A stretch of DNA of 64,000 nucleotides from an uncultured Rhodospirillales bacterium (GTDB taxonomy: Bacteria; Pseudomonadota; Alphaproteobacteria; JAWKYA01), in the NCBI GenBank assembly GCA_964397465.1, contig CAYNIC010000011.1, positions 3,503 through 67,502 on the forward strand, in the 5' to 3' direction. Under the pieces are notes generated by a model, which searched no databases, was not told the origin of the DNA, and worked only from the letters and a program-made list of their open reading frames with translations. The position numbers were made by a program, and so were the translations under genes. This document shows positions 35,109-53,494 of the stretch, in pieces (positions within the stretch are counted from its first letter, which is position 1; every line of letters begins with the position of its first letter).

Positions 35109-35434
35109 AGGGATGATCCGTTTGCAGAAGGTAAGGTTGGCGCCGGTGCGTGGGTGTCGCTTTGCCAGTTTTTTCCTTCGGTGATGATGCAAGATCGGCT
35201 GGAGGTGAGGCGCGCCACGGCAACCCAACTTGCCGTCATCGGCGCGATGTAAACATCGATGGTCGTGCCCTCCGCCGTGGTGCCGCGGCCTAGACGGATA
35301 AATCCCTTGGCGGGGGCGAGGGCTTGATCAAGCTCCGCCGTCGATCCGCACCGCGGTGCTGCAAGAGTAAGCGACGGCAAGGCAAGGATCATCGCGCCAA
35401 GCGTCAGCCCGGCGATACTGTGACAGTAGCGCAT
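35105..35434 (-). CDS. Small secreted hypothetical protein
   Basis: ATG at 35434 after GAGGAG. Signal peptide MRYCHSIAGLTLGAMILALPSLTLAA. Confidence 0.45.
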   Translation of the reverse strand: MRYCHSIAGLTLGAMILALPSLTLAAPRCGSTAELDQALAPAKGFIRLGRGTTAEGTTIDVYIAPMTASWVAVARLTSSRSCIITEGKNWQSDTHAPAPTLPSANGSSL

Positions 35435-35466
35435 AAAAATTCTCCTCAAGATGGGGTTAGAAAAAC

Positions 35467-36960: not shown

Positions 36961-37319
36961 GACAGATCATCATCCTCGGCATCATCGTCCGGCACGGTAT
37001 CGTCGGTATCCGCCACCGCATCCCGCGCCCGGGTCAACAGCGACGCCAAGGCATCGTCGCTTTCCGCTTCTTGATGATCCACCGCCCACCGCGCCAGACG
37101 TAACAGCCCATCCAAATGTCCTAGGGCGGATTTGCACGCAGTATGATAGGCGGAAAAACCCTTGGCGGTGTTGTCGCAGGGTGCGGCGACAAACTGGGTA
37201 TAGCTGTCCAAGGCGGTGGCCAATAAAACGGGAAGATCCTGGGCGATTTTTTGCCGGGTGGACTCGAGGCCCTTTTGGGTGCGGTTTTTGCTGGAAAGTT
37301 TTGATACCGAAACTGTCAC
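36957..37319 (-). CDS. Hypothetical phage protein with acidic C-terminus (small-terminase position)
   Basis: ATGA overlap with the large terminase gene. Function suggested by position only. Confidence 0.4.
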   Translation of the reverse strand: MTVSVSKLSSKNRTQKGLESTRQKIAQDLPVLLATALDSYTQFVAAPCDNTAKGFSAYHTACKSALGHLDGLLRLARWAVDHQEAESDDALASLLTRARDAVADTDDTVPDDDAEDDDLS

Positions 37320-37354
37320 GTCATGTCCTTTCGAGGGAAAACAAAGGCAAGAAA

Positions 37355-37585
37355 TTATCGGGGCGGCAGTGTGCCGGTGATTCCAGTGGCGATTTTTAGA
37401 AACTGTTCCAGCCGCGCCTCGACCTCAGCCAATCGGGTTTCCAGGGGCAGGGAAGATGCCGGTGAAGAAGGTGATGAATCCGGCGGCGCAATGAAAACCG
37501 CCGAGGCGGTTTCGTCGTTTTTCAGGATATAGTTCTCGTCCTCCCATCGAACGCTAAGACCGCGGTTACTGTAGATATAGGGCAT
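37355..37585 (-). CDS. Hypothetical 76-aa phage protein
   Basis: ORF in the operon frame between the fibre and terminase genes. Confidence 0.35.
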   Translation of the reverse strand: MPYIYSNRGLSVRWEDENYILKNDETASAVFIAPPDSSPSSPASSLPLETRLAEVEARLEQFLKIATGITGTLPPR

Positions 37586-37594
37586 GGAACCTCC

Positions 37595-40087
37595 TTAAAA
37601 TTCGTAGCCGTTGATATCGAGCCGAAACTGAGCCGTAGTTGTGGACGACCGCCAATACACCTGCTGGGTTGTGTTCAAGATCAGACGAAACTGTCCGGCG
37701 ATCCGCCATCCATCGAAGATGGTACCGCTGGCATTCCCGGCCGCGGTGTAACAGCCGCCGGTGCCGGTGGCGTCGGCGGCAATGGCGATGGTGTCGTTGG
37801 CCGAGGCGGCGGATTGGCCGATGGTTCCGGAGACCACACCCGCGGCCGGCGGCACCGCATTGGCGATGGATTGCACCGTCCAACTGGTGATGCCGGCGAT
37901 GCCGGTAAAGATGGTTTGTGGTGCCTGAATGACGCTGCGGTCGAACTGATAAAACTTCACCAGATTTGATGCGCCGTCATTGCGCGCCGACCCGACCAAG
38001 GCCTTGTAAGTATATCCGCCGGGAAGCATCGGTGTCGTTCCCGACAAGGATATCAATCCCGCCACGGTGGAGGTCGCGGCATTGTAAATGACCCACAACC
38101 GGTACCAGGTGGCGGCGGCTTCAACGCCGCTGTCCAACCCGTTGACGCCGCTGGCGGCGATGTCGACGGTAACCGCAATGTTGCTCAGCATCATCGCGTC
38201 ACCGGCGGCGTCCTTCACCATCAGTTCATCCGCGGCGATGTCGATCTTATTGGCCGGCGACGCGGCATTGACTCCGGCTTTCAGCCGTCGCGCTTGCCCG
38301 GCAAGGGTGAGGGAATGGGTAAAACTTAAAACGCCATTACCATTGGTGCGGAGAACTTGACCGGCCAGGCCGTCGCTGCCGGGAAAAACAAGACCCTTCA
38401 GTTTGATCTTGCCGCTGCCGTTGGGTGAGAGGTCGATGTCGCCGTTCCCGGTACTGACGATTTTCTTGCCATTGACGATCAAATCCCCGCCCAGTTTTGG
38501 CGCCGGATCATCTTCGATCTTCATCAATATCCCGGGGATGCCTTGCGCGCCGGTGTCGCCTTTCATCGCCAGGACATCCCAATAGATCCCGTTGGGCGGC
38601 GTGTGATTGATATGGGCGATTTTGCAGCGATAACTGCTGCCGGCAAGGGTTGCCACATCGCCGATGACATAGGACGTTACCGCCGACCATGCGCCTTTCC
38701 AGGCCAAGGCGCCGTCATTGCCGGCAAGGCCGTCCACGGCGACCAAGGCCCATTGCGGCGTGGTTGCCGTAAGACCGATGCGGCTTGGCGTGATGCCTTG
38801 ATGATCGACGGCGGCGATATAGGTTGCGCCGCTGGCATCATGGCGGACGACATCGCCGCGTTTGTAGGATGTCGTCATTTCCCACGCGGCCATCCAAGCG
38901 AATCCAAGCTCGGTCAAGGGCAAGGGTACAACCGTAACCGACTTGCCGGTCCACACCATCCATCGTGCGGCATAGGAGGGCGACGTCAGATCAACGGGGG
39001 TGCCGCCGCCGCTGGCGTCGGTTGTTCCCGCCTGGGCGATGTCGCCGGCGGCGAAACCGCTGCCGCCCGCCAGTTGGGGATTGGCCCCGGCTTTGTTGTA
39101 AACGTATCCGTGGCTGTGGGTTGGAAGTTCCGCCAAGGTTAGACTGTGTTTCTCTTCGCCGAAACTTGCGCCCAGTTGGCGAAGAGTAAGACCGGCACCT
39201 TGTCCTGCACCGACGATGGCACGGCCGCGCAAGTCGGGAAGTTTGACTGTGTCGTGCAAAAGCCACGTCTCGCTTCCCTGGTTAGGCGGCAAGGTGCGGA
39301 GGATGGAAAACAGGTTTTCATAGGCGCCATGGGCATGATCCGCTCCGCTTGAGGCGTCGCCCAAGGTTTTGCCATCGAGCTCCAGCCATCCGTCGGGCGC
39401 CATGCCGCCAAGGAGGCCGCCGAGAAACGGATGAATGGTGCCGACCGGTATCGCCGCCGCGACCTGACTGTTAAGGGCGTTCAAGCTGGCGGTGACACCG
39501 TTTAATGCCGCGGTACTGGCGGCGCCCAAGGTGGATCGTCCCGCTGCGGGATTTCCTGCCGCCAATAATGTCTCGCCAAATCCCGACACCGCCAGGTTTC
39601 CCGGCGGGGTGGCGATAATGGCCGTGGGCCGCCCCTCCGCATCAAAGCCCAGCGCTCGCCCGGCGCGAAGCGGCGCCAAGGGCAAGGTCATATCGACGTC
39701 GCTGTCGAACGGCGCCTTGGCAAGGGCATCGCCGGTCAAAGCCTGAACCTGCTGCACGCCCAAGGTCAAACGATCCAGTTCTTCATTCACCACTGCGGCG
39801 CGAAAGGATTCGCCATCGATGAAATCGGTGGTGCGGCTGATCGGCATGGCGCGGCTGATGGTCACCCGGCATCCGGCGGGCGGCGGAATAAAAAATACCA
39901 CATCACCGCCGCTGCTATTTCCGATGCCGGTAACCGTATAGGTGTTGATCGGCGCCCATTGGTCGTTCAACGCGACCTTTAAATCATCGCCGTTCAGAAT
40001 GGGGAAGTCGTAAGCAAAGGCCGTGACGGCGCCGGTGCCCCAATGCTGAAGGCGTGGCCGGACATCGCCGATGAGAAGATCGGACAT
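37595..40087 (-). CDS. Tail fibre protein with phage tail-collar domain
   Basis: 830 aa. Collar motif ...APDGWLELDGKTL...VKLPDLRGRAIVGAG...LTLAELPTHSHG. Confidence 0.7.
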   Translation of the reverse strand: MSDLLIGDVRPRLQHWGTGAVTAFAYDFPILNGDDLKVALNDQWAPINTYTVTGIGNSSGGDVVFFIPPPAGCRVTISRAMPISRTTDFIDGESFRAAVVNEELDRLTLGVQQVQALTGDALAKAPFDSDVDMTLPLAPLRAGRALGFDAEGRPTAIIATPPGNLAVSGFGETLLAAGNPAAGRSTLGAASTAALNGVTASLNALNSQVAAAIPVGTIHPFLGGLLGGMAPDGWLELDGKTLGDASSGADHAHGAYENLFSILRTLPPNQGSETWLLHDTVKLPDLRGRAIVGAGQGAGLTLRQLGASFGEEKHSLTLAELPTHSHGYVYNKAGANPQLAGGSGFAAGDIAQAGTTDASGGGTPVDLTSPSYAARWMVWTGKSVTVVPLPLTELGFAWMAAWEMTTSYKRGDVVRHDASGATYIAAVDHQGITPSRIGLTATTPQWALVAVDGLAGNDGALAWKGAWSAVTSYVIGDVATLAGSSYRCKIAHINHTPPNGIYWDVLAMKGDTGAQGIPGILMKIEDDPAPKLGGDLIVNGKKIVSTGNGDIDLSPNGSGKIKLKGLVFPGSDGLAGQVLRTNGNGVLSFTHSLTLAGQARRLKAGVNAASPANKIDIAADELMVKDAAGDAMMLSNIAVTVDIAASGVNGLDSGVEAAATWYRLWVIYNAATSTVAGLISLSGTTPMLPGGYTYKALVGSARNDGASNLVKFYQFDRSVIQAPQTIFTGIAGITSWTVQSIANAVPPAAGVVSGTIGQSAASANDTIAIAADATGTGGCYTAAGNASGTIFDGWRIAGQFRLILNTTQQVYWRSSTTTAQFRLDINGYEF

Positions 40088-40111
40088 GAGAGTGTCTCCT
40101 TATAGAGGCGC

Positions 40112-40603
40112 TTAACGGATCAGGGATATTTGCTGAATGGCGTAGTGGGTTCCGGTGTCCAGCAGGCTGCGGCCGATGGCGTTCGCCGGCGACAAGCGAC
40201 GCTCGCGGTCCAAAATCTTGGCGCGCTGCTGCGTTTGGGCGATTGCGGCGCCGTTGTCGGCGAGGTCAGCATCCCGTTTGGCCAAGGCTTGTTCCGTCGC
40301 GTCGGCATGACGCGATTGCATCGCCTGTTGCAAGGCCGCCGTACTGCCGCCGTCATCATTGATGCCGCGCGCCGCCGCACTGGTGCGGGCGCCGCCCAAC
40401 TCGCGGCGTAACCCAAGGCGCCGGGTCGCTTGATCGGTCTCGAAGTTGTCGGCGATCAGCGAGCGTCGCCGCTGCAAGGACGCCAGTTGCTGCTGGGCAG
40501 CGAGGCTTTGCGCTTTCGCTTCGGCCCGGCGGGCGGGAAGATTCAGCGCCGTTTGGGCTGCTGTGGCGGCAAGCTGTGGAAGTAACGGGGTTGACGCGGC
40601 CAT
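40112..40603 (-). CDS. Ala/Gln-rich coiled-coil virion protein (hypothetical)
   Basis: 163 aa of low-complexity helical sequence. Start/stop junction shared with the upstream gene. Confidence 0.45.
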   Translation of the reverse strand: MAASTPLLPQLAATAAQTALNLPARRAEAKAQSLAAQQQLASLQRRRSLIADNFETDQATRRLGLRRELGGARTSAAARGINDDGGSTAALQQAMQSRHADATEQALAKRDADLADNGAAIAQTQQRAKILDRERRLSPANAIGRSLLDTGTHYAIQQISLIR

Positions 40604-42501
40604 CAGTCATTCACCTTAAGTTCGCAGTTGACGGAAAGAAGCGTGAAGGAAAAAGGATTGCTTTGGGTAATGCGCCACAGCGGTTCCAGCGCGCCGCGAT
40701 GCCAGCCCAAGGCCCGCACCGTGACATCGCCGGTATAGGCCGCCGGCGGTGAGTCAAGATTGACGCCGCCGATCGTCTGCAACGGAACCAATCTTGGTCC
40801 GCGGCCCACATCAACCATCAAGGCGGGGGTGTCTTTGATGCGGAAGGTGGCGCGGATCAGCCGCAAGGGCTCACCCTGAAGTTCTCCGTTGTCCGACGGC
40901 GGCAGGGGCTCGATGCTGTGGGTAAAGGCAAGACCTACTTCGATGCGGGTGGCGGTGGCGGCCAGAGAAATCACCCCGCCTTTGACCTTATAAAGGCCGA
41001 GCGGCCGGCCATCGGCGATGACCGTCACCCATTTGTCGTTGAGATGGGACAGCCCGCCCCAAATCGATTGGGCTTGTTCGGTTTCGCCCAACAAGGCGGC
41101 ATCACTGTTAAGTTGCGGATCAAATTTTTCGATCCGAAAATCGGCAAAACGTTTGGCCAAGGCATAGACGTCGCCGCCCACCACGGCGACGGCATGAAAC
41201 TCGCCGTCGGTTTCCAACCGCGTCCAGGCGGTGACATTCTCCGAGCGATAAAGGGTAAGGGCGCCGAGGCCGCCGTCGCTCATCACCACGTAAAGCACCC
41301 GCGACTTATCGGCGTAATCCATGTCGATCGGATCCGTCACCAGATGCGGAGCCAGCACCGAGAGGTCGCGGGCTTGGTAAGCCGCCTCGGCATCGGTATA
41401 AAGAAGTTCGCGAATTTGCCGGCCGCTGCGCGCGGCAAACAGGGTTGCGCCTTCAACCGCGCGGGGTGGTACGGTGCGATCAGGGTGTGAGCCGACGGTG
41501 GTTTGCCGTTTCGCCTGGACCGTGGCGGGAGATAACGGCTCGCCGGTGATCTGCCACTCGCCGCCGGTGGTCAAAACAAACAGCGTCAGACCGGAATGCA
41601 TCCCGCGAATGGCGTCGACCTGTTCCGACAACAATCCGAACTCGATCGCATCGTCATCCTCGCCGATGCCAAGATCAAAGTTGAACAGATCCGAAGTCCG
41701 CGACATCCAGATCCGGTTGGGGATCGACCGGGCGCCGCCGAACACCAACCGGTCTTGGGCGAAGGCGACGCTGGCGGGCCAGCCGCGATAGGGTGAAAAC
41801 GCCTGCTCGGACCAATCGGTGATGGCGGTGGTGTTGGGCAAGGACAGGGCCAGCGTCACCTTCACCGCCGTTGCCGAGGTGACCTCGATGATGGCGACAT
41901 CCTGGTTGGGCAGGCGTAAGTATGCGCCCAGCTGCGCCGGATCAAACACCGGTGCCGATGCGGTCAAGGTAATGGTGCCAGAGGTGCCGCTGGGCGTTAA
42001 GGTCACGGTATCTCCGGCGAAACGATAGAACGGATGATAGCGGCGTTTGGTTGTCGTATTGGCGACAAAGGTTAGATCCGCCAAAACCCAGGTTTGCGGC
42101 CCTAGACGGGTGAGGGTCTTTGGCGCAACATCGGGATGACAAATAAACAACGTGTCCGCACTTTGCGCCCAAGTCAGACGCTTGATCTGATCCGCCGTCC
42201 ACGGCGTGGCCACGGTGGCGATGACCGCATCATGGTGCAGGATGGTGATCTGCTGATGGGTGACGACCAACAGATAAGTCTGCTCGGCATTAAAGGCGAA
42301 ACCGATCAGACGGCCGGAGCCCGCGGCGATGGCGATATGACGCAGGCCAGGCCGGCGCGTCACGCCTCCGGTCGGCTGCACCAAAATATTGCGCAGTTTT
42401 TTTGCGGCGTTGCTGTACGACGCAAGATCGCCCCGGCCGTAAAGATCGCTCGATACTTCGCCGGCGGTGAAATTATTTTTGAGAACCCGCATGCGTCCCA
42501 T
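40603..42501 (-). CDS. Large tail/nozzle protein (T7 gp12 tubular-B position)
   Basis: ATG at 42501 after GGAGGAGG; 632 aa. Assigned by size and synteny only. Confidence 0.5.
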   Translation of the reverse strand: MGRMRVLKNNFTAGEVSSDLYGRGDLASYSNAAKKLRNILVQPTGGVTRRPGLRHIAIAAGSGRLIGFAFNAEQTYLLVVTHQQITILHHDAVIATVATPWTADQIKRLTWAQSADTLFICHPDVAPKTLTRLGPQTWVLADLTFVANTTTKRRYHPFYRFAGDTVTLTPSGTSGTITLTASAPVFDPAQLGAYLRLPNQDVAIIEVTSATAVKVTLALSLPNTTAITDWSEQAFSPYRGWPASVAFAQDRLVFGGARSIPNRIWMSRTSDLFNFDLGIGEDDDAIEFGLLSEQVDAIRGMHSGLTLFVLTTGGEWQITGEPLSPATVQAKRQTTVGSHPDRTVPPRAVEGATLFAARSGRQIRELLYTDAEAAYQARDLSVLAPHLVTDPIDMDYADKSRVLYVVMSDGGLGALTLYRSENVTAWTRLETDGEFHAVAVVGGDVYALAKRFADFRIEKFDPQLNSDAALLGETEQAQSIWGGLSHLNDKWVTVIADGRPLGLYKVKGGVISLAATATRIEVGLAFTHSIEPLPPSDNGELQGEPLRLIRATFRIKDTPALMVDVGRGPRLVPLQTIGGVNLDSPPAAYTGDVTVRALGWHRGALEPLWRITQSNPFSFTLLSVNCELKVND

Positions 42502-42502
42502 C

Positions 42503-43069
42503 TCAGCCTCCTCCAGTCCAGCCGGTAAGATCAAATCCGCCGGCGGTTTCTTCCTGGGCGTCGATCAGACGGGCGCGGCGAAATTCTTCCTCGGCGGCAC
42601 GGGCCAAGGCTTCGGCCCGGGATGAATTCTCGGTCAAAGGAATGCAGAACTCGGCCGCCAGGCGCGCGATCAGCACATGATCAAAGAACGGCGGAAAATC
42701 CGCTTCGCCGGGGCGAAAAATATAGGTCAGGATCACTTCATCGGCGTGGGCGTGAAGCCGCCGCTCGGCGATGCGGTAGGTAAGCCCGCGCCCGCGACGG
42801 CCGTTACCGGCGGAAAGGGCGCGAAGATAATCGCCGGGCAATTGAAACGCATAGGCATAGTCGGCGGGGGGCGAGGCCGCCAAGGGCGCAAGCCGCCGTT
42901 GCGCCGTGGCGAAATTCCACGGATGGGCGGAGAGCAGGGCGTCCCGCGTCGACGGATAAAGCAGGCTGGCCACCTCGGCGGCAGCGGAGCCTTCGTCAAA
43001 TCCTAAAATAGGCGCGGCGCCGATTTTCACCAGCGCTCGGGCACAAAGTTGAATGGCGCTCAGAGCCAT
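42503..43069 (-). CDS. Adaptor / tail tubular-A-position protein
   Basis: ATG at 43069; 188 aa. N-terminus MALSAIQLCARALVKIGAAPI...HPWNFA resembles podovirus adaptor-type proteins. Synteny supports the call. Confidence 0.45.
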   Translation of the reverse strand: MALSAIQLCARALVKIGAAPILGFDEGSAAAEVASLLYPSTRDALLSAHPWNFATAQRRLAPLAASPPADYAYAFQLPGDYLRALSAGNGRRGRGLTYRIAERRLHAHADEVILTYIFRPGEADFPPFFDHVLIARLAAEFCIPLTENSSRAEALARAAEEEFRRARLIDAQEETAGGFDLTGWTGGG

Positions 43070-43152
43070 GGCTCGTTGCCTTTCCCATAAAAAAGCTCCG
43101 CGGCGATGAACCATCGCCGGCGGAGCCGATCACAACAGAGAAAATAGATTTA

Positions 43153-43410
43153 TTAGTCGGTGTTCACGCTGCCGACGGCGGTCATGTCGGCGACATCGAC
43201 CGTGCCGTTCTGGCTGGAAGCGATCAGAAGAATGCCGGCGCCGCCGTTGACATTGGCGAGAATCATATCGCCTTTGCGCAGCATATCTACGGCGGGATTA
43301 AAATAGCCGTTGGTATCGACGATGTCGGCGGTATCGGTCGAGGCATAATGCCAAAGGGTAAAGCCGTTGGCATAGGCCAGCACCGAAAGGTTTCTGGCAA
43401 GATAGGCCAT
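43153..43410 (-). CDS. Small capsid-associated hypothetical protein
   Basis: 85 aa, directly downstream of the capsid gene. Confidence 0.45.
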   Translation of the reverse strand: MAYLARNLSVLAYANGFTLWHYASTDTADIVDTNGYFNPAVDMLRKGDMILANVNGGAGILLIASSQNGTVDVADMTAVGSVNTD

Positions 43411-43448
43411 GAAGATCTCCTTTATCTCTTTAAGCTAAGGGTGAAATT

Positions 43449-44273
43449 TTACGCTTCGCTGCACGGCAGGGTGACAAGACCGGTGCCATCGACCAGCACC
43501 GCGCCCAAGGACAGCGAGCAGCTGACGAACCACGCGGCCCGATCGTTGTGATAGGCGATGTCGGTGTTGACTTCCGATCCCACCGCGAGGGCAAGGGCGG
43601 TCTTGTGCCACCAATGGCACAGGCGGTGACCATTGCCGTCGAGGCCAAGGCCGGAATGGGGCATCCACAAGGTTCCCAGCCAGCGCTTGGCCTGGGTGCC
43701 GCGCCAGGGCAGATCGTCGCTGCCGACATAATCGGCATTGGCGAATTCCTGGATCATCAAGAGATCGGACCATTGTTTCCATCCCACCACGGCGTAACGA
43801 TCTCCGTCATCGGGCACATCGTTGCCGCCCAGGATGCCGAAGGCCTCCAGCACCTTTTGTTTGGTGAGACCGCCGCTAACCGTCGGAGTCAGATTGGCCG
43901 AGGTGTTCATCTGCGCCAAAATCAGCTCGTCGGTTTTGCGGCCCAAGGCATAGGCGCCGGCATTGGCCACCACCGCCCGCTCTTCGTTCTCGGTCTTAAG
44001 TTCGTCCAGGGCGTCCACCCATTCGCCGGCATAGTAATCCGACAGAAAACATTCGATCGGCGCGTGATCGATGTTCATCACCGGCACCTTGCCGTGTCGC
44101 GCTTTGGTCGAAGCGCTGCCCTTGCCGACTTTTTGAAACACGGTGGAGGCGCCTTTAACGCTGCCCTTGGCGCGAACGCAAGGGCGGAGCTTGGCGCCCG
44201 TACGCTGATAGGCTTCGTGAACTTCCTTTTCGAACTGCTTGATGAAAGCAGCATCAATGGAGGGTTTATTCAT
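43449..44273 (-). CDS. Major capsid protein (putative)
   Basis: 274 aa, positioned after the scaffold-like gene. N-terminal FIKQFEKEVHEAYQ... pattern resembles small podovirus coat proteins. Confidence 0.65.
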   Translation of the reverse strand: MNKPSIDAAFIKQFEKEVHEAYQRTGAKLRPCVRAKGSVKGASTVFQKVGKGSASTKARHGKVPVMNIDHAPIECFLSDYYAGEWVDALDELKTENEERAVVANAGAYALGRKTDELILAQMNTSANLTPTVSGGLTKQKVLEAFGILGGNDVPDDGDRYAVVGWKQWSDLLMIQEFANADYVGSDDLPWRGTQAKRWLGTLWMPHSGLGLDGNGHRLCHWWHKTALALAVGSEVNTDIAYHNDRAAWFVSCSLSLGAVLVDGTGLVTLPCSEA

Positions 44274-44394
44274 GGTGATCCTTTCAGAAAAAATAAACGG
44301 TTGAGTCCGGCCACGGGTTATCCGCGCAGGGGCGGGCTTGCAGCCGGATGAAGGAAAAAGACGGGCCGCCGCAACGGTTGTCCGTAATTAAGAC

Positions 44395-45132
44395 TTATGA
44401 ACTGGGGTAAAGACGGCGGAAGCCCTCGCTGACCTCGGCCACAAAGGCGGGGTCTTTGTGCTTCCAATAGCGGGGATCGCGCATCATCTTGGTCAGATCC
44501 TCTTCGGTTAAACTTGCAACCGCGGTGCCGCCACCGCCAAGCCGCGGCGGCGATCCGCTTTGCATCATGGCGTGAAGCGCCAGAACGCCGTCGCTGGTCG
44601 AGGCCAAGGCGTCGAACACGTCGCGCGGCAGGTGGGCCGTGCCCCAGGCGTTGAGTTGCCGGGCGATTTCGCGCCATGCCGTATCGCCGCCGAAATGGGC
44701 GATCAGTCGCTCGCGCTGTTTTTGCGCCTCGAATTCCGACGCCAGATCGGTGATCGCCGGCAGCATGCGTTCGCCGGCGAGATCGTAAACCAGCTGAGCT
44801 TGGCGCGGCGTGAAGTGGGCCGCGTGCAGGCGACCGTTGACATCCGGATCAATGTCCAGAAAATCGGTGCTAAGATTGATCTCGTAAGCATCGGGTGTGT
44901 CGGGGATACCGAGCGCCCGGCGGAAGGCTGCGGTCTCCGTCTCGTCGGCATCATCTCGCGGCACCCGCACCATGGTCGATAGTTTTCGCTCCAGCTCCAA
45001 ATAGGATCGCGCCAGTTTCGCCACATCGGGCGCGCCGGTTTGCGGGTCCAAAAATTTCTGGGGAATTTGCACCGTGTCGGATGAAGGGGCGGCGGGCGTA
45101 TCCGATGGTGTGGTCAGTAAACTCTCGGTCAT
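44395..45132 (-). CDS. Scaffolding-like protein
   Basis: ORF trimmed to the ATG at 45132 after AAGGA, 5 nt below the portal stop. 246 aa, helical and acidic. Sits between the portal and capsid genes. Confidence 0.5.
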   Translation of the reverse strand: MTESLLTTPSDTPAAPSSDTVQIPQKFLDPQTGAPDVAKLARSYLELERKLSTMVRVPRDDADETETAAFRRALGIPDTPDAYEINLSTDFLDIDPDVNGRLHAAHFTPRQAQLVYDLAGERMLPAITDLASEFEAQKQRERLIAHFGGDTAWREIARQLNAWGTAHLPRDVFDALASTSDGVLALHAMMQSGSPPRLGGGGTAVASLTEEDLTKMMRDPRYWKHKDPAFVAEVSEGFRRLYPSS

Positions 45133-45136
45133 GGCA

Positions 45137-46669
45137 TTATCCTTTTGTCGACGAAAGGGTTTGCGCCTCAACAGAGGCAGGTAAAATTTCAGAAGAAATC
45201 GCTGCTGGAACATCGGGACGTAACAGGCTCGCCGGCAGGTCCAGCATCTTGGCGGCCCATCTGGCGGCGGCCGGCGCATCCAAGGTCGCGGCGGCGTCCG
45301 GCCCCAACTGCTTGGCGATGTCCAGCCACGACAAGGCGCCTTGCGCCTCCAACTGGGCTTGCCGCCGCGCCAAGGGCGATCGGTATTGCAAGGTGATGGT
45401 GCGACCATCCAAGGTCAGGTTCGGCAATTCGCCGCGCCGGGATAAAATCGCCAAGGCCCGCGCCACCAACGGCGTCAAAAGTTCGGCCTGCAGCCGGCCG
45501 TAGGTTGCGCCCAATAACCGCGCGGTCTCCGCCGCCCGGTGCAGAACTTCGGTTGCGGTCATGCCCGGCGTCGCCACACTTGCCAGGCGGTCGGTCAGCA
45601 GACTGGAGCGGATCGCTTGCCGTAGGGTGGCAAGAGTCAAATCCGAGACATTGAAATTTCCCGGCACCTGCAAGGGCGTCAGGCCCGATGAGCCGACCGC
45701 CTTGGGAATGATGGTGCCCGGCACCAACCTCACCGTCGCCGGATTTAAAACACCGTCGTCATCGGCCTGCCAAATGCCGGTGACGGCGATGGCGGCGTTT
45801 TTCAGCGTCAACTCAACCACCTTGTTGGCGGTTTTGATATCGGGCAATGCCTTCATCACCGGCGAGCGGCCATAGGCCTCGCCCGGCGCTTTCATCCAGC
45901 GAAACGACAAAAAGGGCGATTGATCCAATCGCGCCTTGGCCAAAAGATGCGGGCCGTTGAATTTCTCCGCACCGCCTTCCAACACCGCGACGTAATCGTA
46001 ACCGTTGCCGGTCTCGCGGGGGACCACCGCTTCGATCACCGTGTAAAGACGATCGCTGTCGGTTGCGGCGGAAGCGGGAATCTCCGCTGCGGGAAAGCGG
46101 CTGTGCAGTTGCAGCCGGCTCAACCGATTGCGACGATAGGCGATATCCAACCTTCCCTCGGCGCCTTCCTCCAACACCACATCCCACAACGGCACGGCGG
46201 CAAAGCGAAAGGCGCTGGGTTGTCCCGGGGCGGTTTCTTCAAAGGACAAACAAGCCGTGCCCGACACCACCAAATCCAGAAAGCATTGATGAATCTCCAC
46301 CGCAAAATTCGAGCGATCGAAATGCTGCTGCAGAATCTCGGCGGCGCGATCGAGTTTCGGCGCCAGGTCGCCGTGCAGGTGTTCGGGAATTTCCCGGCCG
46401 GGGGCAAAGCCGAACCATCTGGCCCAGGGCGGCGTCAGTTCAGCCAGCAAACTGGCCGCCAATTGATCCACCGCATCGGGGGCGGTGCCGTCGAACAACC
46501 GCTCGCGGCTGGCGGCGGATAGACTGGAGGGCCCCGCTCCGGCAAAGGGCGTCTCATCCCGCGACGGCAAACTGTAGGCATAGCAGTCGCGCCACACCGA
46601 CTCCCAGGCGCTGCGCTGCATCTTGGCGCGGTGAAACCGGGCCATCACGCTTTCCGGCGTCATGATCAC
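45137..46669 (-). CDS. Portal (head-to-tail connector) protein
   Basis: 510 aa. N-terminal RFHRAKMQRSAWESVWRDCYAYSLP resembles the T7-type connector family. Position is upstream of the scaffold and capsid genes. Confidence 0.7.
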   Translation of the reverse strand: MIMTPESVMARFHRAKMQRSAWESVWRDCYAYSLPSRDETPFAGAGPSSLSAASRERLFDGTAPDAVDQLAASLLAELTPPWARWFGFAPGREIPEHLHGDLAPKLDRAAEILQQHFDRSNFAVEIHQCFLDLVVSGTACLSFEETAPGQPSAFRFAAVPLWDVVLEEGAEGRLDIAYRRNRLSRLQLHSRFPAAEIPASAATDSDRLYTVIEAVVPRETGNGYDYVAVLEGGAEKFNGPHLLAKARLDQSPFLSFRWMKAPGEAYGRSPVMKALPDIKTANKVVELTLKNAAIAVTGIWQADDDGVLNPATVRLVPGTIIPKAVGSSGLTPLQVPGNFNVSDLTLATLRQAIRSSLLTDRLASVATPGMTATEVLHRAAETARLLGATYGRLQAELLTPLVARALAILSRRGELPNLTLDGRTITLQYRSPLARRQAQLEAQGALSWLDIAKQLGPDAAATLDAPAAARWAAKMLDLPASLLRPDVPAAISSEILPASVEAQTLSSTKG

Positions 46670-46884
46670 TCTCCCAATAAAATTTTGCGGGCGGGGATAA
46701 GGCGCGCCGATTTGCCGGCGGTAATGGCAGGCTGCTCCAGCACGCCGGTCAGTCCGGTTTTGACGGTGGTGGCAAGGCCGCGGCGAATCCGGCGGTGCGG
46801 GTGAAGATCTTCCTTCACCGCGGCGGATAGGGGCGGCGGTGCCGGAACCGGCGGTGGGGTGGGGGCGATAAAGCGGCTGGCCAT
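46666..46884 (-). CDS. Hypothetical Pro-rich 72-aa protein
   Basis: ATG at 46884 after GGGAGA. ATGA overlap with the portal start. Confidence 0.35.
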   Translation of the reverse strand: MASRFIAPTPPPVPAPPPLSAAVKEDLHPHRRIRRGLATTVKTGLTGVLEQPAITAGKSARLIPARKILLGE

Positions 46885-46993
46885 CAAGGATCTCCCTGAA
46901 GCAGGTGGAACGAACGGGACAAAGGGTGGAAAAAACAAAACCCGCCGCGGTTTCCCGGGGCGGGTGAGAAGAGGCGGAGTCATGGCCTCATGT

Positions 46994-47008
46994 GTTCCTA
47001 TATAGTTC
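46994..47008. promoter_or_regulatory. Alphaproteobacterial-type SOS (LexA) box GTTC-N7-GTTC
   Basis: GTTC ctatata GTTC read directly. Overlaps the -10 of the promoter listed next. Confidence 0.65.
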
Positions 47009-47027
47009 TCTTTTCAGTTCCTGTCAA
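46999..47027 (-). promoter_or_regulatory. Near-consensus sigma70-type promoter for the portal-to-holin genes
   Basis: The minus strand reads TTGACA (47027-47022), 17 nt, TATATA (47004-46999). Confidence 0.6.
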
Positions 47028-47109
47028 CGGTATTTTTTCTTAAAAAATGAAAAAGAAGCTGGCCGCCTGTGGGCAAGGTTTCCTTCCGGCTGAATCCCCA
47101 GCGTCTATT

Positions 47110-47562
47110 TCAAGAACGGCTTACCCGACCCGCGGGATTTAAAAGACGTCCCGCGTTCCTGTCCGTCAGGGATAAAAATAACCGCCATGGGGTCCAAATA
47201 AATCGGCGCCGCAGGTGCAAAATATTTTTTACCACGGCAACGCAGGTCATCGGCCGCAGCAGGTTAAGACAAGATCGATGGCGCCGCGGGGTGCGGGTCA
47301 TCGGCATCATCACGGGAATCGGCACCGCACCCTTTGCGGTATAGAATCGAATCATCTCCGCAACGGAGTAGGGAGGAAGGAGTTTGATCATCAGACGGCC
47401 GCACAGGGGATCCACCATGATCCATCCGCTGGCGATTCGATAAAGGATAAAGCAATGGCGGAAGCCTCGTTTCAACAGATAAAACCATGGAAATTCCAGC
47501 TCGCCGCGAAATACCACGATCGCCGTAACCCCGCGGCGCGGACGATCAGAGTCGGCGGTCAT
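47110..47562 (-). CDS. Hypothetical 150-aa protein
   Basis: The 244-aa track ORF is trimmed to the ATG at 47562, which overlaps the upstream stop (ATGA). No family recognised. Confidence 0.45.
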   Translation of the reverse strand: MTADSDRPRRGVTAIVVFRGELEFPWFYLLKRGFRHCFILYRIASGWIMVDPLCGRLMIKLLPPYSVAEMIRFYTAKGAVPIPVMMPMTRTPRRHRSCLNLLRPMTCVAVVKNILHLRRRFIWTPWRLFLSLTDRNAGRLLNPAGRVSRS

Positions 47563-47924
47563 CGGACGATTCCCTTGGCCCGCAGCGGCGGCGTCAAACG
47601 CTCTAACGCTTCGCGCCACAGCTTGGCGAAGTTCGCCTCTTCGCCCCGGGCATAGGGCGACGGAGCGCGGCCCATGCGGCCGTAGTGCATCAGGATTTTG
47701 ACATGAGCCCGGCGCAGGCGCCGTCGCTCGACCAGCCGCACCAGCTCGCGCACCACGTCGTCGGGCTCGCAGGGTTTGGGGGTGGATTTTCCCGCCTCGA
47801 ACCGGGCGCCGTCGGCGCGGGCGGTCAGGCAGGCGACGCACCAAAACCAGCAGGCTAAACTCGTCGGGAAAGGCTCCCCAATCGTTGTTCCCTTGCCGGT
47901 GGTGATAAGCTTCAACTGGCCCAT
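47559..47924 (-). CDS. Hypothetical 121-aa protein, first gene of the cluster (possible regulator)
   Basis: ATG at 47924 after AAGGGAG. Arg-rich helical C-terminal half. Confidence 0.45.
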   Translation of the reverse strand: MGQLKLITTGKGTTIGEPFPTSLACWFWCVACLTARADGARFEAGKSTPKPCEPDDVVRELVRLVERRRLRRAHVKILMHYGRMGRAPSPYARGEEANFAKLWREALERLTPPLRAKGIVR

Positions 47925-47969
47925 GGCTTTGCTCCCTTGAAGGGCTTTTTTCTCTCGCGGTAAACGAGT

Positions 47970-47984
47970 GTTCTATTATTGTTC
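47970..47984. promoter_or_regulatory. Second SOS (LexA) box GTTC-N7-GTTC in the divergent control region
   Basis: GTTC tattatt GTTC read directly. Confidence 0.6.
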
Positions 47985-48084
47985 GCTATTAGAGGGAGAG
48001 TCTATATGCACAAATACCCATGTCAAGCCTGAATCAGAATTTGATCCTAGTGACATTTTTCACCTGAATTGTGAAGGTGTTCCC

Positions 48085-48717
48085 ATGTTGAGACATGCGG
48101 ATATATGGCGGGGGATTGACCGTTTGGCTGCGACACATAATTTGTCGCCCTCGGGCTTGGCTCGAAAGTCAGGATTGGATCCCACCACCTTTAACAAATC
48201 AAAACGGGTTGCCCGGGATGGCAAGCCGCGTTGGCCGACGACGGAAAGCCTGGCGAAGATTCTGTCGGCCACCGGCGCCGGCATGAACGAATTCGTCTCA
48301 TTGATGAGCGAGACTCCCGGCACCTCGGTAACCCAGCGGATCCCGGTCATCGGCTATACCCAAGCGGGTCAGGCCGGTTACTTCGACGACGCCGGTTATC
48401 CCGCGGGCAAGGGCTGGGACGAGGTGGAGTTCCCCGATGTCGGCGATCCTCACGTTTATGCGCTGGAGATCAACGGCGACAGCATGATGCCGGTTTATCG
48501 CGACGGCGACGTGGTTGTGGTCTCGCCCCAGGCGCAGATCCGCCGCAACGACCGGGTGGTGCTGAAGACCGTCGAGGGCGAGGTGATGGCCAAGGTGCTC
48601 AGCCGCCGGTCGGCCAAGAAGATCGATCTGCATTCGCTCAACACCGATTTCCCCGATCGCAGCCTGGACAGCGACGACGTGCTGTGGATCGCGCGGATTA
48701 TCTGGGCCAGCCAATAG
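48085..48717 (+). CDS. HTH + S24 peptidase (CI/LexA-like self-cleaving) repressor
   Basis: ORF trimmed to the ATG at 48085 after GAAGGTG. N-terminal HTH (LSPSGLARKSGLDPTTFNKSKR), an Ala-Gly linker, and GDSMMP...K catalytic dyad. Confidence 0.8.
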   Translation: MLRHADIWRGIDRLAATHNLSPSGLARKSGLDPTTFNKSKRVARDGKPRWPTTESLAKILSATGAGMNEFVSLMSETPGTSVTQRIPVIGYTQAGQAGYFDDAGYPAGKGWDEVEFPDVGDPHVYALEINGDSMMPVYRDGDVVVVSPQAQIRRNDRVVLKTVEGEVMAKVLSRRSAKKIDLHSLNTDFPDRSLDSDDVLWIARIIWASQ

Positions 48718-49813: not shown

Positions 49814-49829
49814 CGTATGAGAGGGAGTT

Positions 49830-50627
49830 ATGCCTTACGTACAGCGAGATAAAAAAGGAATTGTAACAGGGTTATTTGAACATAAATTACCAGAGGCTAC
49901 TATGGAATTTCTGGAAAAAGACGATCCGGAAATTAAAGACTTTTATGATCGATTTCCACTATCGCCTCAGATGATAGAGGCGCTTCGCCCTAAATCTACA
50001 AAAGAGTTACTCGAACAGCATCAAAAAATTGAAAAAGAATATAATCAACTTATAGAAGACCATAAAGCACTTCAAAATCTCATTATATCTTTATTAGGTG
50101 TATGGGCGGAAATGGAGACTAGCTTTGCTGGCTTACTAAATGTTCTTTTAACAGGAAGTAGAGAAAAATTGGCGTTTGCACTTTACTTTTCTATTCGAAA
50201 TTTTCAAACGCAAATGACGGTAATTCAAACACTTGGTGAAGTGCTTTTTCCTTCCGAAGAAAATTCAAAAAAAGTGTATAAAGAATGGGAGTCAGTTTTT
50301 AATAAAATTAAAAAGGAAGTACCTGAAATTCGAAACAGAATCGCTCACGGGCATATAGTCCAGTTCTTGCACGAGAAGAAACATATACGTGTTTTGCCGC
50401 CATTTTTTGATTTCATTAAAATAGAAAAAAGCAACGCAAAAGCTGAATTACCTGGAGTTGGACAAAACGAAATATACAAAAGTATAAAGGTAATAGGCCT
50501 AACTTCTCAGTTTGCCAATCGCTTGTCGCTTATTTTTAAGCGTTCTTTTGAAGGCGAGGCATTAGCACTTAAAGAAATTGATTTGGAGCTCAAAAGTTAT
50601 AAGGAAAATTTCAAAAATTTAAGATAA
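49830..50627 (+). CDS. Hypothetical protein with HEPN-like Rx4H motif
   Basis: 265 aa, strongly AT-rich and all-helical. The motif EIRNRIAHG sits at the end of a helical-bundle-like region. Start lies 17 nt after the ilvE-like stop, with RBS GAGGGAG. Confidence 0.5.
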   Translation: MPYVQRDKKGIVTGLFEHKLPEATMEFLEKDDPEIKDFYDRFPLSPQMIEALRPKSTKELLEQHQKIEKEYNQLIEDHKALQNLIISLLGVWAEMETSFAGLLNVLLTGSREKLAFALYFSIRNFQTQMTVIQTLGEVLFPSEENSKKVYKEWESVFNKIKKEVPEIRNRIAHGHIVQFLHEKKHIRVLPPFFDFIKIEKSNAKAELPGVGQNEIYKSIKVIGLTSQFANRLSLIFKRSFEGEALALKEIDLELKSYKENFKNLR

Positions 50628-50765
50628 CAGATGATATAAACATCAGCACCGCCATACGTCGTGTCAATGTCCTGAGATCGACTATCCGCCGGTGCCCTTC
50701 AGCAATAAACCCTTTGCCAGCCTCAGCCCGCTTAAGTAGCATTGCGCGGAAGGGATTTTCGTCTC

Positions 50766-51779
50766 ATGACGCTAAATTATCTCGAACTGATTATCGGCAG
50801 TCTGTGCTTAATCATCATCGGCTTCTGCGCCGGTGTTGTTATCCATGCCGGCGAGATCATTCCCTATCAGCCGCTGATCGTCGGTTTGATCGCGCTGGGC
50901 GGCGCGGTGATCGCCTATGTCGGAACGCTGAGGGCATCCCACGCCCATCTGCAGGTCGCCGAGAAGAACATCAAGCATCAGCAAGAGCAGAAGGCGCTGG
51001 ACTCTATCAACGAGAAACAGGAAATCGCGTCCTTTGCGCAAAAGCTGCTGCTGGAAATATTCAATTATCTGGTGGCGACAAGCCTTCTTTCCCGGGACCA
51101 GGCCATCGATGAAAAATGGCTCAACCTCTTGACCCTGAAAGACATGATAGAGCGATATGTCACCAGGATGGAGGACGCCTCGGATAAATTCATGAAACTG
51201 GACATTAACAACTCCAGCCGAATTCATCTGATCATTCGCGGCTTGAAAAACATCCTGCCCGAGGCGGAGACGATCCAAAATATAAATCAGCTGATGAAAA
51301 CCGGCGACAATGGCGCGATCTGCGCCCAGTATATCAACCGCACCTATGAATATATCGGGACATTCTTGAACGAGAACGTTACGGTACATGACATCCTTAA
51401 CGACTTGGATGTCATCTCCAAGGGCAATGTGGATCAATCAAGGGCGTATTCGATCTTGACGACGGATCTGAGAAAAATCATCAACGAGAATCTGAGGCTT
51501 ATTCAATCCGCCGTCACCGCGGGCCGCTATCTCGAGATCGATTATCCGCCGGGGCGCCGGGTGGTGGCGCCGCATATTTTGGGGCGCACCAGCAGTGGCG
51601 AGCTGGTGCTCAGCGTCTATCAAGTCAACGGCGCCAGTGATGCTGGCGAGACGGTGGGGTGGAAGACTTTCCATCTCGATCGCATTTTGGGCGTAAGGGT
51701 GTTGGATAAACGCTTTTCACCGCAGGGCGATTACAATCCCCACGATCCGAAAATACCCGAAGTTATCGTCAAGGTATAA
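50766..51779 (+). CDS. Two-TM membrane protein with C-terminal WYL-like domain
   Basis: ATG at 50766. TM helices LELIIGSLCLIIIGFCAGVVI and PLIVGLIALGGAVIAYVGTL. C-terminus YLEIDYPPGRRVVAPHILGR...LVLSVYQ...WKTFHLDRILGVRVLDKRF fits the WYL pattern. Confidence 0.55.
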   Translation: MTLNYLELIIGSLCLIIIGFCAGVVIHAGEIIPYQPLIVGLIALGGAVIAYVGTLRASHAHLQVAEKNIKHQQEQKALDSINEKQEIASFAQKLLLEIFNYLVATSLLSRDQAIDEKWLNLLTLKDMIERYVTRMEDASDKFMKLDINNSSRIHLIIRGLKNILPEAETIQNINQLMKTGDNGAICAQYINRTYEYIGTFLNENVTVHDILNDLDVISKGNVDQSRAYSILTTDLRKIINENLRLIQSAVTAGRYLEIDYPPGRRVVAPHILGRTSSGELVLSVYQVNGASDAGETVGWKTFHLDRILGVRVLDKRFSPQGDYNPHDPKIPEVIVKV

Positions 51780-51803
51780 GCGCCGCAGCGCGCCTGTTGC
51801 AGG

Positions 51804-51875
51804 TGCGGATCACTGATCAACAGTTTTCATCGCAGCTAAAGGACCATCTACGCGATGTGATTGTCACTCCCATCA
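51804..51875. repeat. Direct repeat R1 (~72 bp)
   Basis: Hand alignment with 53176-53246 gives about 56 of 72 identical with one gap. The best block is TGCGGAT.ACTG.TCAACAGTTTT. Confidence 0.75.
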
Positions 51876-51903
51876 GCTCTGCAAATAGGTCTATACGGTT
51901 CAA

Positions 51904-52623
51904 TTAATTTGTCGTTTGAAAGCCACGAATCGCCCAGAGTATTGACCATCCAAATATAAAGATAATCGTTGGGGGAATGATAAACATACCCAGGATAAAT
52001 AATAAACTTTTGTCAGCTATAGATCGATATTCTTTGGCATGGTTTTTTGCGGCATCAATTTTGTCTAACCGGCTTACTTTAGATTTGTAGATTTCTGCAG
52101 GGTTACGGCCGCAAGGAAGATCTATGATCTGTCTTGATTTTTCTGCCAGATTCTTATTCAGAATATTTCTAGCATCTTGAATAGATAATGACCTAAAATC
52201 AACAATAGTAACCCAAGCTTCTCGTTTAAAAGCTTCCACTATAGCTTCCAGCTGTTCATCAGATAATTTTTCAAAGTCAAACTTAGTTTGGGATGACGGA
52301 TTTTGTTTCTCCGTTTGTCGTTCTGGTGGGGGAAAATTTGATTCTTGTATTTGATTAAGATCTATCCAGCCGTTCTCCATAAAATAGAAGATAGGCTCAG
52401 TGCGGCATTTAGTTCTATAATACTTTCCTACTTCCGGTTCAGGCAGAGAGTCTGTCTCTGATTGTAGAAAAGATATTTCGCGATCTGCTTCTGCAGAACG
52501 CCTTATATTATTAGTATATTCCGATTTCAATTCGGTTAATACCAGCCAAGCTACCAGCGAAACCCATATTGCACTAATTATCAGCCATAAACGAAAAAGC
52601 CCTCTTCCAAATCTAGACATCAT
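51904..52623 (-). CDS. Hypothetical membrane protein with N- and C-terminal TM helices
   Basis: 239 aa, AT-rich. Third gene of a translationally coupled trio. Confidence 0.5.
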   Translation of the reverse strand: MMSRFGRGLFRLWLIISAIWVSLVAWLVLTELKSEYTNNIRRSAEADREISFLQSETDSLPEPEVGKYYRTKCRTEPIFYFMENGWIDLNQIQESNFPPPERQTEKQNPSSQTKFDFEKLSDEQLEAIVEAFKREAWVTIVDFRSLSIQDARNILNKNLAEKSRQIIDLPCGRNPAEIYKSKVSRLDKIDAAKNHAKEYRSIADKSLLFILGMFIIPPTIIFIFGWSILWAIRGFQTTN

Positions 52624-52813
52624 ACTTTAGGCACTCTTCTGCAGAAGCAACTTCAGATTTTAATTTTGAATAATCTATATTTTCACCCCAAGGTTTATCG
52701 TCTCGAGCGTTCTTTAAGGCGTCGCTGCAAAGATCTTTATTGCTCAAATTCGTAAATGGATATGAATAGAATTTTGGTGGGTAGTCTGGAATAGTAACTT
52801 TCACACATTTCAT
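52613..52813 (-). CDS. Hypothetical 66-aa protein
   Basis: Overlaps both neighbours (ATGA with the upstream gene, 11 nt with the downstream gene). Confidence 0.4.
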   Translation of the reverse strand: MKCVKVTIPDYPPKFYSYPFTNLSNKDLCSDALKNARDDKPWGENIDYSKLKSEVASAEECLKYDV

Positions 52814-53046
52814 TGTTTGATCTTTCCATTATTTTTTATAATTTGGTTGGGATCGAATCCCTCCGCCACAAGAAGTGAGCTAAGTTGTTCACCAAAACTT
52901 TTACTGTCTTCATATGCGAAGAGAGGCTTTTGAGTCTTATCAGATACAGATATATAAACGCGCCCTTGACCCGCATGCTCAAAATCAAAGTTGTAGCCAA
53001 GGTCATGGAGCGCAATGAGCATTCTGGCGTTGTTTGTATTGCTCAT
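52810..53046 (-). CDS. Hypothetical 78-aa protein
   Basis: First gene of the trio. Preceded by a very AT-rich ~125-bp leader/promoter region. Confidence 0.45.
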   Translation of the reverse strand: MSNTNNARMLIALHDLGYNFDFEHAGQGRVYISVSDKTQKPLFAYEDSKSFGEQLSSLLVAEGFDPNQIIKNNGKIKQ

Positions 53047-53175
53047 TAGGTTATGCTTCCCTTTTATTTCTATTTAAAAGGGTATCATTAAATATATATA
53101 ATTTTAAATAGTTTTAAAAACACCTGACTTTTCAGTATCTTCTGCCTAGAAATCATTTTTAGCGCATTGTGTGGT

Positions 53176-53246
53176 TGCGGATAACTGGTCAACAGTTTTT
53201 ACCGAAATTGAAAGCCATCCGCGCGAAGTGACGGTCGCTCCCATCA
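53176..53246. repeat. Direct repeat R2 (~71 bp)
   Basis: See R1. Confidence 0.75.
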
Positions 53247-53284: not shown

Positions 53285-53494
53285 CTAACACGTCGCGTAG
53301 GTCGGGCTTTGCGCCGCCTCAAACACAAACATCACTTCCGACGGAATAATGTCATGGGGCAACTGGCCCTTTTCCTGTGCTGCTTTCAACACAAGATCCT
53401 TCACATCGCGTCGCATCGTGCTGTTGAGGGTTTGAAAACCGCCGACCCCATAAGGGCCAACTGTTTTTCCGTGGTATTTGATAAATACGTTCAT
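53285..53494 (-). CDS. Hypothetical 69-aa protein (the open frame continues upstream to 53755)
   Basis: The ATG at 53494 has a strong RBS, GGGAGGGAG. The 156-aa track ORF adds a basic, AT-rich N-terminal extension of doubtful coding status. Confidence 0.4.
   Translation of the reverse strand: MNVFIKYHGKTVGPYGVGGFQTLNSTMRRDVKDLVLKAAQEKGQLPHDIIPSEVMFVFEAAQSPTYATC

Follow-up and report, generated by a model that had tools for sequence, protein, structure and literature searches.

The 64,000-nucleotide stretch of contig CAYNIC010000011.1 analyzed here (the window), from an uncultured Rhodospirillales bacterium (assembly GCA_964397465.1), carries at positions 50,766-51,779 a gene, referred to as the target, whose product joins two transmembrane (TM) helices, an all-helical region and a C-terminal WYL-type barrel. 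The analysis revealed that the target is a single-gene unit, real and selected, with its own conserved promoter. Its architecture is new and its WYL barrel is of a known superfamily. The HEPN-motif open reading frame (ORF) located just upstream is a strain-specific insertion and not a partner of the target, so that the pairing of the two genes is an accident of insertion. As for function, a membrane-tethered ligand sensor-effector that acts autonomously is proposed tentatively.

The start codon of the target is common to all orthologs in an alignment of the related loci. Upstream of it, a consensus scan predicted a sigma-70-like promoter, whose blocks TTGCC and GCTTAAGTAGCAT are unchanged in five lineages even though the coding sequences fall to 44% amino acid identity. 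The block GCTTAAGTAGCAT was found nowhere else in the window, hence the target has no operator in common with the region of the S24 repressor that lies upstream. Moreover, the promoter-like element is placed 3' of the HEPN-motif insertion, between this insertion and the target, which gives the target its own transcription signal. The content in guanine and cytosine (GC) of the gene is 0.519, versus 0.62-0.65 in the flanks.

Intact orthologs form three clusters, at 96, 87 and 73% identity; the clade also includes a 273-aa form (44% identity) without the WYL part, and some fragments. For the four intact forms, the target included, the ratio of nonsynonymous to synonymous substitution rates (dN/dS) is about 0.1 (0.07-0.25) in each of the three parts, TM, helical and WYL, which indicates a selected protein-coding gene. 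At the same time the target is only 44-73% identical where the aminotransferase, the S24 repressor and the helicase of the same loci are 88-98% identical, and between allele types (compared with the related contig L007) the nonsynonymous rate dN is 0.11 in the TM hairpin and 0.64 in the helical domain. In contigs L007-9 (e.g. L007 3388-4209) the gene is present as the 273-aa form, with the WYL part deleted. In L018-L023 (e.g. L018 5223-6345) it is broken across three reading frames, in six independent contigs, and the ortholog is there a pseudogene. In this pseudogene a helical region of the L007 type is joined to a WYL part. The fusion to WYL is therefore the ancestral state, from which the 273-aa form arose by deletion.

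Regarding the N-terminal part of the protein, the target contains two hydrophobic segments only, the Kyte-Doolittle maximum elsewhere being 1.24 in a 19-aa scan, and the loop that separates them is short (about 10 aa). Four Lys/Arg residues are counted within the 26 residues after the second TM helix and none in the N-terminal tail or in the loop, which, by the positive-inside rule, suggests an inner-membrane hairpin with both ends inside and a cytoplasmic soluble part. In the AlphaFold model, the helix of the second TM segment extends as a long stalk, after which six or seven more helices fill the chain as far as residue 252, with beta-strands beyond; the predicted local distance difference test (pLDDT) value is about 80 over residues 80-200 of the helical middle. 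A Foldseek comparison of the full-length model with the Protein Data Bank (PDB) returned generic Sm proteins and helical bundles only. A match of the helical region to the NCBIfam model DS41_1_antiphage (E=0.006, 15.6 bits versus a cut-off of 370) was judged insignificant.

The C-terminal module, residues 235-337, was assigned as a WYL-type barrel. It scores 15.7 bits (E=0.015) with Pfam WYL (PF13280) when the full-length protein is used and 19.5 bits (E=0.00099) when the domain is taken by itself, both under the gathering score of 21.8 bits, and the PADLOC WYL model PDLC01652 matches the target at E=4e-7. A model of the module built from a 101-sequence alignment reached a pLDDT of 94.8. Compared with solved WYL structures it scored 11.9 for PafBC, 11.3 and 10.8 for BrxR, 10.8 for DriD, 10.3 and 7.9 for CapW and 8.0 for WYL1, versus 7.7 or less for the best generic Sm/SH3/Hfq barrel in the same comparison. 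Foldseek also supports the WYL assignment of the module, and the profile of its family picks up the BrxR structure 7qfz at E=0.004. Furthermore, the blocks RRVVAPH (with R265 and P269) and FHLDRI (residues 302-307) align with the equivalent blocks of BrxR and DriD. The Trp-Tyr-Leu motif itself is missing; its place on the central strand is taken by E-L-V-L-S-V-Y-Q in the target and by x-x-L-x-A-Y-Q across the family, and the module carries a 7-residue insertion with the family-specific motif YQ..G.S...GW. The fold assignment is sound and the subfamily is divergent. A similarity between the family motif YQ..GAS....GW.LF..D and the C-terminus of human SSAT1 (2f5i/2b3u, E~0.1-0.3) was also seen; it is short and most likely due to chance.

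This architecture is rare. When 1.84 billion representative proteins were scanned exhaustively with HMMER, matches to the N-terminal 250 aa came from the target's own small clade alone. A word-indexed protein search returned five matches with the full target, all from the same clade, and two with the C-terminal domain alone; a family-alignment scan of the GTDB species genomes gave no match. In a 2014 survey, WYL domains were described in fusions with winged helix-turn-helix (wHTH) domains, Cas3, an exoRNase, Mrr, HNH, SF1 helicase, an AbiGII-like nucleotidyltransferase, BRCT and TerB, and a membrane anchor is not among these architectures (PMC4012209). A full-text literature search found no description of a membrane-anchored or stand-alone WYL protein. 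An earlier note on this DNA had read the protein as two N-terminal TM helices, a helical middle region and a C-terminal WYL segment, an arrangement it held to be unusual. The hydropathy scan and AlphaFold recovered the two helices, the middle region is all-helical in the model, and the WYL segment is borne out by the PADLOC model, the structure model and Foldseek, though its Pfam score is sub-threshold. The confinement of the N-terminus to one clade and the survey agree with its view of the architecture.

Concerning the HEPN-motif ORF, it does run in the same direction as the target and ends 138 bp upstream of it. It lies within a low-GC insertion that the alignment places between the stop of a class IV aminotransferase gene and the conserved upstream region of the target. 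The ORF is missing from all the related loci with upstream sequence (L001, L004, L007, L012 and L018-L023), where the target comes directly after the aminotransferase gene at a spacing of 25-80 bp; of the five other lineages without the ORF, three keep the target intact under purifying selection. By blastn, L001 and the window are 98.99% identical over the 9.9 kb that end at the aminotransferase stop and 92.9-93.4% identical beyond the insertion, a comparison from which the insertion is read to lie exactly on a recombination breakpoint (junction 49813/49814).

The sole basis of the HEPN label of the ORF is the motif RNRIAHGH, at residues 168-175, and a bare Rx4-6H arises in 59% of shuffles of this protein, while the stricter R[NDHQ]x3-5H arises in 11.5%. 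No HEPN profile matched at E<1 in Pfam, PADLOC, NCBIfam or PHROGs, apart from a weak RTasHEPN match (E=0.033) located away from the motif; another weak match was to DUF6548 (E=0.0026), a family for which a literature search found nothing. Among 5.8 billion proteins the HEPN-motif protein has no homolog but itself, and none was found in viral contigs. A direct repeat marks the right-hand border of the insertion and copies part of the WYL-coding sequence of the target (EIDYPPG, 51534-51555), with 20 of 22 positions matching. Over its first 19 nt it does not differ from the L018-L023 allele, and its score was reached by none of 2000 shuffles. This repeat of 19-22 nt is unlikely to be due to chance, and it may be left over from a site that the cassette occupied earlier. 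A 21-nt inverted repeat between the start of the HEPN-motif ORF and the start of a convergent 69-aa gene downstream of the target (76% complementary) most likely reflects similar ribosome-binding sites.

The absence of the ORF in relatives, the lack of homologs, the breakpoint, a motif expected by chance and the target's own promoter together show that the ORF is an insertion and not a partner, and its pairing with the target is not a conserved module. The two-gene HEPN/WYL module proposed in the earlier note was hence not supported, since the ORF is absent from every related locus and has no HEPN profile match, and a conserved linkage to a HEPN gene among homologs was looked for in the related loci and not found. 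Its caveat that the two genes differ in GC content (0.342 in the ORF versus 0.519 in the target), so that their pairing might be accidental, proved right, the insertion being unique to one strain.

The gene order in all related contigs is a T7-like prophage-like module, the S24 repressor, the class IV aminotransferase, the target, the convergent 69-aa gene, a glyoxalase and a DinG-like helicase. In the GTDB species genomes, homologs of the aminotransferase are 60% identical or less and show no synteny; the nearest are 50-60% identical and in the main alphaproteobacterial, in keeping with a source that is probably an alphaproteobacterium. In all related contigs the T7-like module occupies the same locus, its portal protein being 79-100% identical where present; replication genes were not identified in it, and no convincing att-type direct repeats bound it. 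The target is located in a low-GC islet between this module and alphaproteobacterial core genes. Just after the target stop lies a second low-GC insertion, bracketed by a diverged intergenic duplication of about 70 nt (51790-51859 and 53162-53231) and missing from all other lineages. Its ORFs have no family matches; the 239-aa orphan protein has N- and C-terminal TM segments, and its ORF has no relatives in viral contigs. The target is therefore in a small hotspot where foreign DNA has been taken up on both sides. All related loci carry the 69-aa gene, at 57-94% identity, those with a broken target included. No recognizable defence gene was detected at the target locus with the PADLOC models, and there is no cyclase or cas gene within the 20-kb neighborhood. 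The features are displayed in Table 1.

Table 1. Features of the target gene and of its surroundings, with positions in the window.
Feature	Position	Strand	Remarks
T7-like prophage-like module	33725-48717
Holin-like gene (T7-like module)	33725-34345
Large terminase (T7-like module)	35467-36960
Tail genes (T7-like module)	37595-42534
Capsid (T7-like module)	43449-44273
Scaffold and portal (T7-like module)	45137-46669
S24 (CI/LexA-like) repressor (T7-like module)	48085-48717		divergent
Strain-specific low-GC insertion with the HEPN-motif ORF	49814..50691	+	about 879 nt, GC 0.357; outside the conserved unit
HEPN-motif ORF	49830-50627	+	co-directional with the target, ends 138 bp upstream
Direct repeat, 22-nt copy (20/22) of WYL-coding sequence	50674..50695	+	at right edge of the insertion
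Predicted sigma-70-like promoter	50714..50742	+	TTGCCA, 17-nt spacer, TAGCAT; consensus scan
Target coding sequence	50766..51779	+	ATG 50766, stop 51777-51779; 337 aa: 2TM, helical region, WYL
TM helix 1, about residues 8-26	50787..50843	+	Kyte-Doolittle peak 2.86; AlphaFold helix 3-28
TM helix 2, about residues 37-55	50874..50930	+	Kyte-Doolittle peak 2.27; AlphaFold helix 35-111
All-helical stalk and bundle, residues 56-234	50931..51467	+	predicted cytoplasmic; AlphaFold; no homologs detected outside the clade
WYL-type module, residues 235-337	51468..51776	+	N-terminal helix and five/six-stranded Sm/SH3-like barrel
Second strain-specific low-GC insertion	51860..53197	-	GC 0.368, adds about 1.37 kb; outside the conserved unit
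Orphan ORF, 239 aa (second insertion)	51904-52623	-
Orphan ORF, 66 aa (second insertion)	52613-52813	-
Orphan ORF, 78 aa (second insertion)	52810-53046	-
Conserved convergent 69-aa gene	53285..53494	-	constant downstream neighbor of the target; no family match, no TM segment

The WYL-type module has many relatives outside the clade. With a profile built from five family members, the HMMER scan of representative proteins returned 1017 clusters at E<0.001. Among the best 150 of these 1017 matches, nearly all match residues ~244-337 alone, and about 90% are proteins of 94-146 aa. These stand-alone relatives align end to end with residues 235-337 at 28-41% identity, and their consensus (...Y.GG.R.VEPH..G....G...L.AYQ..G.S.SG...GWK.F....I...) includes nine nearly invariant positions that are all present in the target (9/9). 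A PF13280 match at E<0.01 was obtained for 24 of 42 aligned sequences (41 relatives and the target module), and some relatives carry database labels such as 'WYL domain-containing protein' (PGAP) or 'YafY' (IMG). Judging from these alignments, the C-terminus of the target is effectively a fused copy of a widespread stand-alone WYL-like protein of about 97 aa. The family occurs in many phyla, and 18 plasmid records, from bacteria and from haloarchaea, carry members of it. Stand-alone examples are those of L104 (5001-5294), L111 (6034-6327), L112 (956-1246) and L118 (4501-4773), plus 12 others. Two proteins of about 250 aa (P0065 and P0108) present two tandem WYL-like modules after a hydrophobic, signal-peptide-like N-terminus, and in P0075 the module is fused to a DinB-family domain.

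Sixteen genomic contexts of stand-alone relatives were inspected, in a sample that is not random (four metagenome contigs and twelve plasmids). Three of the 16, on a metagenome contig, Deinococcus pDrdII and a Rhodococcus plasmid, place the gene directly beside an OLD/GajA-like ATPase-nuclease. In another one, from Aliarcobacter, an SbcCD/LmuB-like pair lies on one side of the gene, and a PDC-S06 candidate defence protein and a NucC-like nuclease lie on the other. Six further contexts are toxin-antitoxin, insertion sequence (IS) or recombinase-rich regions of plasmids. These contexts are a weak but real hint that conflict systems often employ the family module as a small accessory sensor.

Regarding this data, the target could be an autonomous membrane-tethered ligand sensor-effector. 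We propose this function tentatively, as a possibility short of an even chance, from the anatomy of the protein, its autonomy, its selection and its accessory, fast-turnover character. The autonomy follows from the invariant promoter-like element, the convergent orientation of the downstream gene and the absence of the HEPN-motif ORF in relatives. The accessory character follows from the low GC, the low identity in comparison with the flanking genes, the WYL deletion and the frameshifts in related contigs, and the two abutting insertions. The modular divergence between allele types, with a conserved TM hairpin and a very divergent helical domain, also counts in favor of this function. The OLD-family, PDC-S06 and toxin-antitoxin/IS contexts of the stand-alone relatives add weak support for a role in conflict. 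In such a mechanism, the cytoplasmic WYL barrel would bind a nucleic-acid-derived ligand arising in invasion or DNA stress, through a binding surface unlike that of DriD and CapW. The helical stalk, probably a dimer or an oligomer, would relay the signal to the TM hairpin, which would rearrange or oligomerize and perturb the membrane, leading to growth arrest or exclusion. The logic would be that of Cap15 in the cyclic-oligonucleotide-based antiphage signaling system (CBASS) or of Cam1 in type III CRISPR, with a WYL barrel as the sensor and no upstream signal-generating enzyme.

Cam1 (PMC10808066) and Cap15 (reviewed in PMC10419184) are effectors made of TM segments and a sensor that depolarize or disrupt the membrane. 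The target resembles Cap15 (two TM helices and a beta-barrel) and Cam1/Csx23 (TM segments and a CARF or other sensor) in its N-terminal TM part and its small cytoplasmic domain that may bind a ligand. It differs from them in its sensor fold, which is WYL, in the long helical domain between anchor and sensor, in the absence of a cyclase, Cas10 or other signal-generating gene nearby and in the lack of sequence similarity. None of the PADLOC effector models matches the target, and the relation to Cap15 and Cam1 is one of analogy, not of membership. There are also differences from the wHTH-WYL-WCX regulators DriD, PafBC, CapW and BrxR. The target has neither wHTH nor WCX, its N-terminus being a TM hairpin and a novel helical bundle; no helix-turn-helix (HTH) family match was found in Pfam or NCBIfam, and only one beta-strand follows the barrel. 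Without HTH and WCX the target is not a regulator of this type and cannot be a DNA-binding regulator. Its barrel also departs from theirs in the strand E-L-V-L-S, in the missing arginines that contact single-stranded DNA (ssDNA) and in the 7-residue insertion. The stand-alone proteins of about 97 aa are soluble, single-domain and separately encoded, and only in the target clade is the module part of a helical protein anchored in the membrane. WYL1 of Cas13d is soluble too and shows a conserved association with Cas13d, whereas the HEPN-motif neighbor of the target is a non-conserved orphan insertion.

Several points weigh against a sensor-effector. Solved WYL domains sense ssDNA, a precedent in favor of it, and CapW and BrxR contact this ssDNA through a Ser before R-x-V-x-P, two Arg of RWHVR and an Arg before F-x-L-D-R-I (PMC11662680). 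In the profile alignment to BrxR, a comparison of sequence only, both RWHVR arginines align with Glu279 and Ser283 of the target, the Ser with R264 and the last Arg, conservatively, with K300. As the RWHVR arginines are missing, the ligand of the module need not be ssDNA. In addition, the full-length AlphaFold model is mediocre, with a pLDDT of only 65.7, so that any domain arrangement or oligomeric state is tentative. The N-terminal 234 aa match no PADLOC, PHROG or NCBIfam family, and the TM hairpin may be a mere anchor. Intact sequence clusters number only four, and the loss of the gene in sister lineages makes it dispensable. Moreover, the WYL module family was not found in 50,697 phage genomes searched with the target and the family consensus, and five of the 16 contexts of stand-alone relatives are ordinary-looking metabolic, housekeeping or stress loci.

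These ordinary contexts, near Transgly_assoc, mechanosensitive (MS) channel, DUF1456 and histidine-kinase genes, also bear on a second explanation, in which the target would be a non-lethal membrane-tethered adaptor or regulator. Its hairpin would simply anchor the protein, and its barrel and bundle would hold a nucleic acid or a partner protein at the membrane, or let it go once a ligand is bound, in a stress response such as the ordinary contexts suggest. Only two TM helices and a very short periplasmic loop are what is typically seen in simple anchors, a protein-interaction surface could be provided by the large helical bundle of the model, and the characterized WYL proteins are all regulators or accessory factors, none of them effectors (PMC4012209, PMC11662680). 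However, no conserved partner gene was found: the sole constant neighbor is the 69-aa gene, which is oriented convergently and is retained in loci with a broken copy of the target. The low GC, the rapid divergence and the sporadic loss also fit an accessory or conflict gene rather than a housekeeping regulator. An adaptor is a possible candidate, somewhat less probable than the sensor-effector.

The target could also be an accessory gene of the adjacent T7-like element, encoding a superinfection-exclusion or lysis-timing membrane protein expressed from the lysogen. Some 2 kb separate it from the S24 repressor with which the module ends, an arrangement that is syntenic in every related contig, and a small membrane protein encoded at the end of a prophage under a separate promoter is the classic form of an exclusion gene. 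Nevertheless, a host-like aminotransferase gene (GC 0.62) separates the repressor from the target, the 99%-identical block of L001 stops before the target, which, at 93% identity, goes with the core-gene side, and the target has no relatives in 2.9 million viral contigs or in the 50,697 phage genomes and no PHROG match. These data make a phage-borne function improbable.

It is even harder to accept that the target is a decaying lineage-specific gene, functionless in this strain. The deletion of the WYL part in one sister lineage, the multiple frameshifts in another and the tiny taxonomic range would fit with decay, but the reading frame is intact, dN/dS is near 0.1 across the three regions in the four diverged orthologs, the target among them, and the promoter is conserved, so that decay has a small probability. 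Finally, a two-gene module in which the WYL protein gates a HEPN RNase, as WYL1 does with Cas13d (PMC5935466), is the least credible explanation and very improbable, because the shared direction of the genes, their spacing of 138 bp without a terminator-like site, and the 19-nt scrap of WYL-coding sequence that suggests that the cassette may once have adjoined a gene of the target family, are set against an ORF absent from five other lineages, without homologs or HEPN profile, with a chance-level motif, a mismatched GC and a recombination breakpoint at its insertion.

The target itself is a rare, dispensable and clade-restricted gene. If it were a membrane effector of the proposed kind, the WYL barrel would join CARF, SAVED and the Cap15 barrel as sensors wired to membrane disruption, and it would show that such effectors, otherwise cyclase-dependent, can work without a cyclase. 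A broader idea, which we consider unlikely, is that WYL barrels of this divergent subfamily are portable sensors, gating OLD-family or PDC-S06 ATPase-nucleases in trans as proteins of about 97 aa and a membrane-perturbing TM hairpin in cis in the target clade. If this were true, the target would be the first WYL-gated single-polypeptide membrane effector without a second-messenger synthase, and the family of about 1000 clusters would represent unrecognized small defence sensors for a ligand other than the ssDNA of DriD and CapW. With its conserved surface unlike the ssDNA-binding one and its recurrence beside OLD-family nucleases, this family of proteins of about 97 aa offers a tractable lead on the regulation of these nucleases.

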